64,000 bases of DNA from Escherichia coli (GTDB taxonomy: Bacteria; Pseudomonadota; Gammaproteobacteria; Enterobacterales; Enterobacteriaceae): the NCBI RefSeq assembly GCF_041248615.1, contig NZ_CP158426.1; one strand, written 5' to 3'. Position numbers: made by a program. The first letter of the stretch is position 1. Each line of letters starts with the position of its first letter. Of this stretch, positions 52,801 to 58,800 are shown one piece after another.

Positions 52801-55800
52801 GGTGGTGCTGCAGGTATCCGTGCCAACAGCGTGGCGGATATTAGTGCTATCAAAGAGATTGTCTCCCTTCCGATGATAGGGATTATCAAACGCGATTACC
52901 CTGGCAGTGAGGTGTTTATCACGGCCACTCTCCGGGAAGTGGATGAGCTGATGACCGTTGAGCCGGAAATTATTGCCCTGGATGCTACTGCGCGCCCGCG
53001 CCCTGGTGGTCAGACGCTGGAAGAACTGGTCACGCAGATCCGCGCTCGCTACCCGTCCATACTTCTGATGGCAGATATAGCAACAGTAGAAGAGGCAGTG
53101 ACAGCTGAACGTCTGGGTTTTGACTGTGTGGGCACTACGCTCTACGGCTATACCGCAGAAACTGCCAGGCATGTGCTGGCGGAAAATGACTGTGGATTCT
53201 TACGTGAGGTCCTGAAAGCGGTCAGCGTTCCGGTCGTGGCGGAAGGGAATGTCGACACCCCGGAGTGCGCCGCACGTTGCCTGACATTAGGCGCTCATAC
53301 CGTGGTGGTTGGGGGGGCAATCACTCGTCCGCAGCAGATAACGACACGCTTTATTGCAGCGATCGCCTCGTAAAGCACCGATGAGGCATGATATTTTGCT
53401 GGGAATAAGCGATAATTATCGCTTATTCCATATTGAGAGTGCTATGCAGTTCCCGATTAGCTCGGCAGGGGCTAAATCATGGTTATCCGGTCATGCTGCG
53501 CATGGATAATCGCTCGGAATTTAACACTCTCGCGCTGACACTGGCTGAATGGGCATAGATACTCGCAGTAAAACGAGAGCTCAGCCAGCCTGGTCGAGTT
53601 ACCCCTGATAGAGGAATACTGATCCTACCCCATGTAATGTGGACACAAGCCTAAGTGATGTTCTGGTTTTCAAATTGTTCCGTACTGAGACCACCACACC
53701 AGCTGTGCCCTAACAGGCACAGTTTCAGCACTCCTAAGCAACCGTAAAATGGCACCAGTTTCACAAGCAATTGTGCTCATTATTATTGCTATAACAAAAA
53801 CCTTTTTTTCTGATGAATGAATTATTAATATAATTCTGATCAAACACCTGTTTTTTTAACCTACAGAAGGAGTTATTATGAAAAAATACTCTTCTCCCGT
53901 CCTTGCACTCATTCTTGTTAGCAACAGTATGGTATCCTCCGCTGCCACAAAAGAAATCTCAAAAACAGCTTATGTCTGTAATGGAAATAAGACAATGGAG
54001 GTGGTCTATATCAACACCACTGCTGGGAACTCATATGCAGTGATTAATCAGATGGATGAGATGATACCTATGCAGCTAATGAAAATGGCCTCCGGAGCCA
54101 ATTACGAAGCCATCAATAAAAGATACTCATATAAACTGTACACAAAAGGTAAAAAAGCCAATCTGGTGGAAGGGAATGATAATCCTGTCTTAAGCAACTG
54201 TTCATCGGCCGAATGACAGCCAGAGCCTGTCAGTAATTCTGTGTAAATGCCTTTTCTTTAAAGTGACCGTCAGGACGGTCACTGATTACCCATTCTGAAT
54301 TCAGTGCAGAATTAAAACATGTGTGCAAAATAATTTAATTCAGACAGCTTTTTATTTCACTATGGCTATCCCAGAACAACCAGTACAAATAATAAAAGAC
54401 ATATCACAGCAACACTCCACACTGACAGCGCAAAAATAAATGCCGCCTTTGTTATCTTCATATACAAGCAACCTGTCCTGATAATCACCAACTCATGTTT
54501 TATTCTTAACCATTCGTCACAAATACAACAAAAAATAACAGCAGCAGCACCGATATCACAATATAAGATACATTATTCAACACCTGAATCCCCCGCCGCT
54601 TCTCTCCCCTTTATAAAACGCCCCTTCCGGAATCCAGACCGCTGCAGTGCACGACGAAGATGACCGTATACCGTCTTGTCATTCTGCCCCGTCTCTTCTG
54701 TAATCTCCGCAATACTTAAACCTCTGTAATACCGGTTCAGTACCGCTCTGCGCTCTTCCAGCGTCAACACACCTCCGGCCGCTCTCAGATTCAGCATCGA
54801 CTTATTCAGAATACAGCAGGCCTCTCCGGTAAAAAGAATACGAACAATATCTGTATACTCATCATCACAGAATACAAAATAATATCTGAATGACCTGCCT
54901 GACTGCACCCTTCTTCTGTCTGATATGGCATCTTCTATATATCTGATTCGACTGCTTACGGTTCCAAATATCTCTCGCAGGGCTTTTTCAAAATAAATAT
55001 CTCTCGTCGCCAGGATTATATCCAGCATCTCTGTACCTCATTATATCCCGGGGGACTCCCCCCGGGACAGATATCTAAATCCTGACCTGTCAGAACTCAA
55101 AATTCACACCAGCATTCCACGATGCGGATGACCCACCTGCAGCAACTGCAACTTTTCCTGCCACATTCTCTGTGAAACGGTAGCCCACGCCCACCGCAAT
55201 GGCCTGCTCATCACGGTAACCACCAACGGCTGCTGTCGCGTTAAATTTTCCAACACTGTATGGCTGGAAAAGACCTGCCAGTGCCGCGCTCTGGGCTGCA
55301 CTCTCCCTTAACTCCTTCCGGTTCTCTTTAATCTGCTCCTGCATATTATTCATTCTCTCTGTCGCCATCTTCTGCCAGGCTTCCGTCAAATCCAGACGAT
55401 GACTGTTATTCCTTATCGCTGCTGTATTTGAGGCTATTGCTGCATCCGTCTGCGCCCTGTTCTTCACAAGCACATCGCTGAGATGTTCTGCCTGGCTTTT
55501 CGCTTCTTTACGGGCATCCCGTACACTTTTATCTGTATAAGCCCGGGAAACCTGAACTGTTTCATCCGCTTTTTCTTTTATTTCATCCTGAAGAGCAAGA
55601 GAAGATGCATCCGTATACGCCACCGCTGCCGATGTGCCTGCAATAATATCCCTGCTGAGTTCAGCATGAACTGTTGAAAGACGTTTATCTGTCTCGTCAA
55701 TTCTTTCATTCGTCTGCAACAAAAAGACCTGTGCATCATCAAATCGTTCATTCAGTTGCCCTACCGTCGCTGCATCTGTGTTATTGATACCATCAGACAC

Positions 55801-58800
55801 ATTTATAATCCGGCGGGTTTCCGGTGCTCCTTTGACACTCTCTCCATATCCCTCAGGCCCGGCACCAACAGATACCACGTTATTTTCTCCCGACACCTGT
55901 GAGCCATGGCCCAGAGCTACAGAACTGGTAGAATCCTGCACAGATGAAAACGCACCAATTGCCGAGCTCTGACGAGAAGAAATAAGTGACGCTTCTTTTC
56001 CTGCAACAGTCCCCCATTCAGAGTCAGCAATAAGTGCATCATGCCCCAGACTCACACTTCCCGGAGAGTTCACAACACCAGAATTATTCCCCAAAAGCAC
56101 AGTCCTGTTTGAGTCTAATAAAAAAGAATCATCACCAATCAACCATACATTTCTTACTTTATCAATCGAACGGCCAGCTACTGATTCTCCAACAAGAAAG
56201 CTATTATCTTCGCCAGGTTGAATCGGTCCGATTAAAATATCCTGAGCCTGAGCCTGAGCCGAGAGCAGCAGGGCCACACTCACTGCCAGCGCGCTTTTCT
56301 TTAAAAAAGCATCACGTCTTTTAAGCATTCTGTTATTCTCCTGTATTATTACTTCACCAGCCAGAACGGTAGTGCGGAGCAAAAATACAGTGATAAGAAT
56401 CCTCTTTTATTAATTTAATAATGCCAGGAATATTATTGTGTATAATATGCGCCCTCAATTTAAGCAGCAGAAAACGACTGGCATTAAAATCATTAAATTA
56501 TAAACATATACAACTTTGTAAAGGTGGTTATAATAAACCTGATTACTTTAACGTCTGTATACCTGCACTGCTGATATCACAAAACAATAAAAATCCTGGT
56601 TAATATCTCTGATGATTGAATGAGAAATTCACGATGTCTGGTGAGAATTCTGTTCAAAACGAGGAATGCAGACGTACACGTGGCACGCACCACGTGATCC
56701 GTAGAAAAGCCTCTTGTTACGAATTTCGTAAACCGCACGTCTGTCTGGTCGTGCGGATTTTTTATCCGTCAACTTCACATGAAACCCGCCAGAGCACTGT
56801 TTCCGGATTCAGACATCAGGCATATTATTATCCACGATGTCGTGAACAAGATCACACTTTTGCAATTCCTTTATTGATCGAAAGCAGTTAATCACGGAAA
56901 TTAATTACCGGAGTGAAAGCATTTGCTATATAAACATTCCCAGAAGACATCTTCATGTTGAATATTATTCCCTTATTGACTAGCCCCTCTGACAGAATTT
57001 CAGAGGGGGTTTTTTATCAGTTTCACCATCCAACCCTGTACGCCAGAATGGTTTCACTGTCACTCAGTTCTGCTATTGCCTTTTTCATCTCCCTTTACCT
57101 TACGTTCTGCCAGAGTCTGAGCCATTTGAACAGGAGGTTATCATTGATATCGTGTTCCCGGGCAATACGGGCAACAGAGGCTCCTGGTTGCAAAACCAGT
57201 TTAACCATTTGAAGTTTAACTCATTTGAAAATGATCTGCGGGGTTCTGCGGATAATGTTTTTGCTCCATAACAGGCGTCCACCAGTTTGAAAAGGTGGGC
57301 ACCTACGTTACCAATACTGGCTTAATGGCTACATACGGCGGTCGGTTCTTACGGTAAAACGACACAACCAAACGCTTCTTATCCTGCAATGAACTGCTTT
57401 ATTACCGAGTTTAGTGACCGCACAGACACTCACTTTTAAGAAAAACAGAATGGTAAACAAACTCCATGAATTACAATAGCTCTCTGGCTGCCGCCACAAT
57501 ATCTTGCGCGGTTAACCCGTACTCTCTCTGTAAAAAGTCCTGAGTTCCAACCTGGCCATACCGCTCTTTAACCCCCACCCGACGCATGGGCACAGGACAA
57601 GTTTCTACAAGCACTTCAGCAACCGCTGAACCTAATCCATTATGAATACTATGGTTTTCACATGTTACGATCCGTCCTGTTTTTTCGGCATAATTTTTAA
57701 TTAACATCCGATCAACGGGTTTGAGCGTAAACATATCAATCACCGCTACACTTACCCCAGCCAGCTCAAGTTGACGTGCGGCCTCCAGGGCTTCCACCAC
57801 CATAATGCCATTAGCAATTAAGGTGACATCCGTACCTTCACGTAATACCTGCCCTTTGCCAATTGTAAAGGTTGTACCTGGTGCGTAAATACTCGCTGCT
57901 TGCTTCCGAATGGTACGAATCCAATAAAATCCTTCCAGTGCAACGAGTTGACGCAAGATATCGCTGAACATTACGGCATCTGTCATCTCCATCACCACCG
58001 AATGCGCCAGCCCGCGCACAATTCCCATATCTTCAAATGACATATGTGTTCCGCCATTGTGGCAAGCAGCAACACCCGCATCAGAAGCTATAACTTTGAC
58101 GTTAGCGCCCTGGTAATCAAGCGACATAAAGAGTTGATCAAAACAGCGACGACTGGCAAATGCGGTAAAGGTATGCACGAATGGCTTGCGCCCGGTTAAG
58201 GCCAGCCCTGCAGCTGTGCCGATAACATTGGCTTCCATAATGCCGCAATTAATGACGTGATCTGGATAATCCTGCGCCACGCTGTCCATTGCCATGGAAC
58301 TCATTAAATCAGCCTCAAGAGCAATGACAGAACTGACGTTTTTACTCTGTTGCGCGATAAAATCTGCATAAACTTTGCGCATTTCAATGCTGTCTTTTTG
58401 TCCTGCCGGTGCGAGATTAATCATGCATAGCCTCCAGTTGGCGAATTGTTTCGTTTAGCGTCCCCTTCATCTCTTCTGTGAGGCGTAAGTGATGAGAATT
58501 ACTGAGTTGCTCGAGACACGGCACCCCCTGCCCTTTAATGCTATCGAGAATGACCACTCTCGGTCTGGCCTCAGCTGGCAGGACAGGTTTAACTACATTC
58601 AACAAGCCCTCAATATCATCGCCCTTCACTGTCACGACATCAAAACCGAAAGCCCGGAATTTTCCTTCCAAATCAAATGGATTAATAATTTCATCCAGTT
58701 GACCATCAAGCTGCTGTTTGTTCCAGTCCACAAACACAGTGAGGTTATTCAAACGATGATGCGCGATAAACTGGAAAGCTTCCCAACATTGGCCTTCATT

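Follow-up and report, generated by a model that had tools for sequence, protein, structure and literature searches.

Within a 64,000-nucleotide stretch of the Escherichia coli contig NZ_CP158426.1 (RefSeq assembly GCF_041248615.1; hereafter the window), two adjacent minus-strand genes encode a 412-residue trimeric autotransporter adhesin (TAA; 55090-56328) and, downstream of a 61-nt spacer, a 151-residue protein with a sigma-region-4/LuxR-like helix-turn-helix (HTH; 54573-55028). We find that the pair is an island-borne copy of a prophage-derived cassette whose gene order and architecture are conserved, and consider it reasonably probable that the cassette acts as a mobile two-gene unit, in which an Eib-like surface adhesin is coupled by transcriptional read-through to a small HTH regulator that would feed back on the cassette or adjust host genes. 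The window matches the chromosome of E. coli NRZ14408 (NZ_LT599825.1) at 100% identity, positions in that record being higher by 32000. Both genes are annotated in RefSeq, as a 'YadA C-terminal domain-containing protein' and a 'sigma factor-like helix-turn-helix DNA-binding protein', respectively, and neither is a chance open reading frame (ORF). The TAA gene likely starts at the AGGAG-preceded ATG at 56328, which yields the 412-residue product, and an upstream boundary at 56382 corresponds to a TTG-started ORF of 430 residues (55090-56382, minus strand); the HTH gene carries a GAGG ribosome-binding site 7 nt before its ATG.

The preliminary description of the locus had proposed a trimeric autotransporter of about 412 residues with a neck motif, a coiled coil and a YadA anchor, and domain and structural comparisons bear this out. 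Pfam YadA_anchor (PF03895) spans residues 354-412 with E=1.9e-16 and 60.3 bits (cut-off 22.7), and the anchor aligns to the solved YadA anchor (2LME) through the terminal ...NFEF, with its final aromatic residue, at E=1.3e-17. The refuting case of an adhesin without a functional anchor therefore does not apply. The neck (residues 173-194) scores 25.2 bits with Pfam YadA_stalk, slightly below the 28.4 cut-off, and aligns clearly with the necks of SadA and EibD, while the EibD structure 2XQH aligns through its head, neck and stalk with residues 74-234. The N-terminus, MLKRRDAFLKKSALAVSVALLLSAQAQA with predicted cleavage before QD, combines a basic N-region, a hydrophobic core and an AXA site and was judged by inspection to be a Sec signal peptide. 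An AlphaFold2 (AF2) monomer model has low overall confidence (predicted local distance difference test score, pLDDT, of 57) and leaves the anchor unmodelled; it places a beta-roll head at residues 41-150 (pLDDT 74-91) and long helices at 186-235 and 243-352. Together, these data delimit a signal peptide (~1-28), a beta-roll head (~41-165), a neck (171-194), a coiled-coil stalk (195-353) and an anchor (354-412). By its anchor, signal peptide and head/neck/coiled-coil organization, the protein is assigned to the type Vc trimeric autotransporters, and its gene is intact and appears functional. A PADLOC match of the TAA to LmuB is weak and was discarded as coiled-coil noise; the small proteins gave no match in the same defense-system search.

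The suspected resemblance to Eib adhesins also holds up. The window TAA shares 37% identity with EibD over 329 residues by blastp, with a near-identical anchor, and tblastn aligns 69-71% of the query at 36% identity with EibC, EibD and EibE; the EibA match, at 57%, is limited to the C-terminal 23% of the query. The heads and most of the stalks of the Eib proteins are nevertheless unlike those of the window TAA, which we place by sequence similarity as an Eib relative outside the canonical similarity clusters EibA-H. Furthermore, the Eib stalk stretch with the immunoglobulin (Ig)-binding residues aligns poorly, with a 13-residue gap and little identity, and since the protein also falls outside the Eib clusters, Ig binding is not to be assumed for it. 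YadA of Yersinia has the same head/neck/stalk/anchor architecture at ~29% identity; orthology to YadA was considered and rejected, as the NCBIfam model NF033478 (YadA_autotrans) gives 81.4 bits against a curated cut-off of 750. The yadA gene itself lies on a plasmid, and its regulator VirF is encoded elsewhere. Two further Eib-related, EibG-like lineages that fall outside the canonical Eib clusters and have genomic contexts of their own, Cla and Yal, have been described in Shiga toxin-producing E. coli negative for the locus of enterocyte effacement; of these, ClaA and ClaB mediate chain-like adherence, do not bind the IgG Fc, are of limited similarity to Eib proteins and were put outside the Eib family (bioRxiv 10.64898/2025.12.25.695649). 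The window TAA may belong to the Cla or Yal lineage, and that preprint does not discuss a downstream regulator gene.

The 151-residue neighbor had been described as carrying a LuxR/sigma-region-4-like HTH, a reading with which both profile and fold comparisons agree. Pfam Sigma70_r4_2 matches residues 87-130 (30.9 bits against a cut-off of 25.7). The AF2 model (pLDDT 77.5; predicted template-modelling score 0.76) comprises an N-terminal alpha/beta domain of ~80 residues, with four or five strands and three helices, and a C-terminal HTH whose recognition helix spans residues 117-131. Structural matches include RcsB, NarL, GerE and region 4 of extracytoplasmic function (ECF) sigma factors; the C-terminal 42 residues fit the latter to 0.7-0.9 A, at identities of up to 36%. 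Residue D55, at the end of strand 3 and at the position of the response-regulator phospho-aspartate, is invariant both in this protein and in the ORF-156 lineage introduced below. A bona fide NarL/FixJ response regulator was nonetheless rejected: the domain is truncated, D55 is all that is present of the acidic pocket, there is no Response_reg match in Pfam and no adjacent kinase gene. We therefore classify the protein, from its domain match and predicted model, as a probable sigma-r4/LuxR-type HTH protein whose N-terminal domain is at best a pseudo-receiver.

Two large protein searches recovered near-identical relatives only (mostly at least 94% identity), essentially all from E. coli; beyond such copies and fragments, the search of 1.8 billion representative proteins added just four weak HTH-only matches. 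Searches by tblastn of phage and plasmid collections returned no match, because the relatives there are too diverged, and a match to phrog_6585 is weak (E=3.3e-4). Such diverged relatives are the ORF-156 proteins encoded beside the eib genes of Eib prophages. ORF-156C aligns end to end with the 151-residue protein by blastp (22% identity, E=4e-5), and an hhalign comparison with a profile of 19 ORF-156 relatives gives a probability of 95.2% (E=2.6e-8, 130 columns), placing the window protein, on profile evidence, as a remote member of the ORF-156 family (phrog_6585) at 17-25% identity. The ORF-156 proteins, annotated as 'hypothetical proteins', occur only in E. coli and, unlike the 151-residue protein, yield neither a domain nor an HTH score in Pfam; through this relationship the entries deposited in 2000 probably represent DNA-binding proteins. 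A comparison of the eibA-linked and eibC-linked copies yields a dN/dS of ~0.1, indicative of purifying selection, so that the ORF-156 protein itself appears to be maintained. A full-text literature search for ORF-156 together with eib found no paper.

The pairing of adhesin and small regulator had been singled out as worth checking, and the linkage proves to be conserved. In the assembly collection, 5466 indexed blocks contain the exact 151-residue protein, and we compared ten distinct places among the matches listed for it. The HTH gene follows a YadA-anchor gene in all ten and starts 60-61 nt after it in nine, the tenth (locus L012) having an insertion sequence (IS) between the two genes. 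The contexts fall into three groups: selC-type islands, islands beside aerobactin genes, and the far end of lambdoid prophages. The eibA, eibC and eibD records present an equivalent arrangement, namely orf-191 (a DUF4376 gene), a stem-loop, eib, a second stem-loop, orf-156 and orf-60. Shared with the window are the DUF4376 gene, the TAA gene, the stem-loop, the gene for a protein of ~150 residues and, tentatively, a small hydrophobic ORF; the Eib loci (eibA, eibC, eibD and eibE; GenBank AF151091, AF151674-6) differ in being prophage-borne, whereas the window cassette resides in a selC island. In a third lineage (P0192), an ORF-156-type gene lies 82 nt downstream of short TAA genes on plasmids. 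The order of TAA gene, stem-loop and small gene is thus kept in all three lineages compared (island/prophage, Eib phage and plasmid), and on this comparative evidence we judge the TAA-HTH pairing to be conserved rather than accidental. One set of plasmids (loci L023-L027, e.g. CP023358.1) carries in a row a gene for a 1439-residue TAA, a BamE/OmpA-like lipoprotein gene, a short TAA gene and an ORF-156-like gene.

The expectation that such an adhesin would be prophage-borne stands for the ancestry of the cassette and fails for its present location. The pair sits in a ~50-kb mosaic selC island, between setC and the integrase/tRNA-Sec (selC) site, and because the 64-kb window holds no phage structural genes, the pair is not prophage-borne in this genome. 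Upstream of the TAA gene, however, positions 57023-57094 on the minus strand encode REMKKAIAELSDSETILAYRVGW*, the last 23 codons and stop of a DUF4376 gene of the orf-191 type from a tail-fibre region. Without a mismatch, the same residues end the DUF4376 protein encoded ahead of the cassette in the prophages at L005 and L007, and nucleotide homology to the prophage copies begins at 57102. In the prophage copies (L005, L007 and L012), the cassette follows gpJ, Lom, a tail fibre gene and the DUF4376 gene and precedes DinI and the integrase. The island cassette therefore descends from a moron at the tail end of a prophage. Directly before the DUF4376 remnant lies an IS3-family transposase remnant (57107-57282, minus strand), annotated as a pseudogene in RefSeq and translating to an orfA-like fragment, which truncates the upstream phage gene. 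We propose that a cassette of prophage origin was captured into the selC island by IS activity.

Across these contexts, the two ends of the cassette behave differently. The 3' module (54354-55679, minus strand), comprising the stalk end, the anchor, the intergenic hairpin, the HTH gene and ~220 nt beyond it, is at least 99.4% identical between island, prophage and aerobactin-island copies in pairwise blastn comparisons. The head-coding segment (55766-56243, minus strand), in contrast, shows 74% identity or no match in the other copies, with both flanks matching, which marks it as a hypervariable, swappable passenger; alignment resolves at least four head types on one stalk/anchor/HTH backbone. 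Further upstream, the AT-rich 5' leader (56329-57022, minus strand), the presumed regulatory region of the TAA gene, is conserved among cassette copies together with the signal-peptide-coding stretch, at 89-100% identity in other contexts with a 72-nt indel near 56685 (blastn). Among 5426 complete E. coli genomes, 183 carry the 3' module, in all cases on the chromosome, and in 163 of these a contiguous stretch makes up 80% or more of the module. An HTH ORF of 80% or more of full length is found in 182 of the 183, with up to 6 copies per genome, all at least 99% identical. Poultry sources, chickens among them, account for about half of the 40 entries listed for the HTH gene and for 10 of the 12 entries in the module listing, and include some named avian pathogenic E. 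coli strains; these are raw shares among the matches listed, uncorrected for the sampling background.

A second source of variation lies in the stalk. Family members in E. coli are highly polymorphic in length, from 410 to 581 residues, and alleles differ in stalk repeat copy number (lengths include 482, 515, 548 and 581 residues). The syntenic 581-residue allele at locus L008 contains a 99-nt (33-residue) tandem repeat in 4.2 copies (L008 6961-7371), and the window allele equals this form minus 169 residues, including the whole 33-residue repeat array, a loss bounded by direct repeats of ELSRDIIAGTSAAV within the stalk. The deletion, with its junction near 55662, preserves the reading frame and is bordered by native sequence on either side, and short alleles of 410-425 residues are found repeatedly, in several genomes. 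At the other end of the gene, the hexanucleotide GCTCAG is repeated 3.3 times (56240-56262, minus strand) and encodes AQAQAQ at the signal-peptide cleavage region; L005 has one additional unit. The repeat preserves the reading frame and so does not work as a frameshift switch.

How the two genes might be expressed is suggested by their geometry. The 61-nt spacer folds at -23.6 kcal/mol (z=-2.1) and contains a GC-rich stem-loop (55044-55069, minus strand) of 11 bp with a GAGU loop, which is not followed by a U-tract; the spacers of the Eib phage and plasmid cassettes have strong stem-loops with U-tracts at the equivalent place. A sigma-70 promoter scan of the coding strand upstream of both the TAA gene and the HTH gene, including the spacer, found no site, and the sole TATAAT before the HTH gene lies 6 nt from its ribosome-binding site. 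A scan of 54000-57400 against Rfam gave nothing near the gathering score. We therefore envisage the two genes as one transcription unit, in which the HTH gene would have no room for a promoter of its own and its product would be made only when transcription from the TAA promoter reads through the intergenic stem-loop. By limiting downstream transcription, the stem-loop could set a regime of abundant adhesin and little regulator, the latter in proportion to adhesin expression. The TAA would be exported via Sec, its C-terminal four-strand segments would trimerize into a 12-strand barrel, and the beta-roll head would be displayed on a short coiled-coil stalk; because a barrel-anchored head would thereby be presented at the surface, we propose a role as an adhesin or autoaggregation factor. 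The HTH protein, in turn, may act as a transcription factor, either in feedback on the cassette promoter or in tuning motility or biofilm genes of the host when the adhesin is on.

Feedback or cross-talk with motility and biofilm is favored by analogy with two E. coli systems. AutA and AutR, LuxR/GerE-type proteins encoded beside the autotransporter gene upaB, bind the upaB promoter and act globally (PMC4844996), and 3'-terminal genes of the tosA adhesin operon encode TosE and TosF, which suppress motility (Engstrom 2014, as cited in PMC4844996). All four are small LuxR/GerE-type HTH regulators found beside a non-fimbrial adhesin gene, a setting that recalls that of the 151-residue protein. 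Beyond the HTH, however, the search of representative proteins brought out no homology between them and the window protein, and the partner adhesins differ in class from the TAA, being a type I secreted repeats-in-toxin protein (tos) and a classical autotransporter (upaB).

Several observations weigh against this coupled adhesin-regulator model. The HTH gene shows no single-nucleotide polymorphism (SNP) across 10 copies, and with a 3' module this close to clonal, the strict linkage could be hitch-hiking; a SNP census of the module was uninformative in itself, since differences were too scarce and a 1-nt indel had put one locus out of alignment. A fourth lineage (P0200; 164 residues, L018-L022 5001-5495) is solitary, beside hpaBC and near PerC-like genes, and no TAA remnant is detectable in the 1.1-kb gap upstream of it, so that the small protein needs no strict cis partner. 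Furthermore, the missing U-tract and modest z-score make an attenuator role of the window hairpin uncertain. Finally, a search of the leader for operator-like repeats found none convincing, and comparison of the leader with the upstream regions of the eib and plasmid cassettes revealed no common motif.

The rival explanation that fares best in light of these points is that the small gene has no functional link with the adhesin and merely rides along in the homologous 3' flank used for head swapping, as a passenger; its linkage would then stem from cassette mechanics and not from regulation, and it may serve the phage, for instance in lysogeny, late-gene control or exclusion. The near-clonality of the 3' module while heads are shuffled is consistent with such a role, as are the position of the cassette in the moron region of lambdoid prophages and the existence of a solitary ORF-156 homologue without a TAA. 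On the other hand, three lineages whose small proteins have diverged to ~22% identity and whose TAAs have diverged to 37% keep the order, the spacing and the intergenic stem-loop; the pair persists in islands and plasmids without remaining phage functions; and the low dN/dS indicates that the protein itself is maintained. We consider the passenger scenario unlikely, if well worth keeping in view.

Considerably less probable is that the 151-residue protein is a sigma factor or sigma mimic, redirecting or sequestering RNA polymerase. Its top Pfam match is indeed Sigma70_r4_2, its C-terminus fits ECF sigma region 4 closely, and in some sources it goes under the name 'sigma-70 family RNA polymerase sigma factor'. 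Region 2, however, was not detected: matches to NCBIfam sigma models are confined to residues ~67-130 and reach 12-21 bits, where the cut-offs are 43-350, and the N-terminal half is predicted to be beta-alpha-beta rather than the all-helical sigma-2 fold. The lack of region 2 together with the alpha/beta N-terminal half rules out a complete sigma factor, whereas a sigma-4 mimic is speculation. Least probable of all is that the locus is a decaying relic, with a non-functional shortened adhesin and an unexpressed leftover ORF: although IS debris and a truncated phage gene border the cassette, the adhesin is shorter than its syntenic allele, many database copies of the adhesin are truncated or IS-disrupted and an upstream consensus promoter was not found, the deletion joins native direct repeats in frame, so that the signal peptide, head, neck, coiled coil and anchor are all still intact, alleles of similar length recur, and the HTH ORF is retained near full length in all but one of the carrier genomes.

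The coupled adhesin-regulator cassette consequently remains our preferred model. Annotations of both genes existed beforehand, and loci of this type entered GenBank in 2000; what the comparisons appear to add is modest, namely that ORF-156-type genes encode HTH proteins linked to Eib-like TAAs across phages, plasmids and islands, and that the cassette exchanges heads on a constant anchor-plus-HTH backbone. More speculatively, and with a good deal of doubt, the ORF-156 and 151-residue proteins could be a hitherto unrecognized family of transcription factors, restricted to E. coli, that combine a truncated receiver-like domain with a sigma-4/LuxR HTH. Such proteins would be tied to Eib-like cassettes on phages, plasmids and islands, made by read-through in step with adhesin transcription and able to reprogram motility, aggregation or biofilm formation upon expression of an adhesin gained by horizontal transfer. 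If true, the cassette would amount to a portable 'adhesin plus lifestyle switch' module with swappable heads.

Eib-type adhesins have a part in the serum resistance, aggregation and chain-like adherence of pathogenic E. coli. Expression of EibG is weak and condition-dependent (PMC4352079), and the small HTH gene, present beside the adhesin in every full cassette examined from phage, plasmid and island, is a candidate for the missing regulator of Eib-type adhesins. The cassette also illustrates how a phage moron can become a fixed island gene, and its two sources of variation, head swapping and the 33-residue stalk repeat, matter for typing and vaccine work, with particular relevance to poultry-associated E. 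coli, in which the module appears common.

Past the HTH gene, the conserved module contains two tentative hydrophobic ORFs on the minus strand: one of 25 residues (MLNNVSYIVISVLLLLFFVVFVTNG; 54506-54583), whose GTG start lies within the 3' end of the HTH gene, and one of 31 residues (MKITKAAFIFALSVWSVAVICLLLFVLVVLG; 54366-54461), just beyond which the module ends. The Eib loci carry orf-60, with a C-terminal hydrophobic stretch, at the matching position; in the plasmid and solitary lineages a small membrane ORF after the HTH gene is not conserved. The two tiny ORFs could be small membrane proteins or chance ORFs.

Just past the 3' boundary of the cassette, and convergent to it, lies a gene for an MliC-family c-type lysozyme inhibitor (53878-54216, plus strand). 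The remainder of the selC island contains much IS debris, toxin-antitoxin and antirestriction genes, sugar-utilization operons and another autotransporter. Elsewhere in the window, the region 16188-34331 includes the giant inverse autotransporter gene iatC (11.1 kb) beside eilA, which encodes a HilA-like regulator, and near them the remains of a type III translocon cluster, in which genes of the IpaD/SipD-like, YopB/SseC-like and SycD-like chaperone types are present; this cluster as a whole corresponds to the eip locus described in enteroaggregative E. coli 042. Finally, a low-GC block (34%; 2001-4800) between ilvN and uhpA contains two hypothetical genes, one of them encoding 489 residues.

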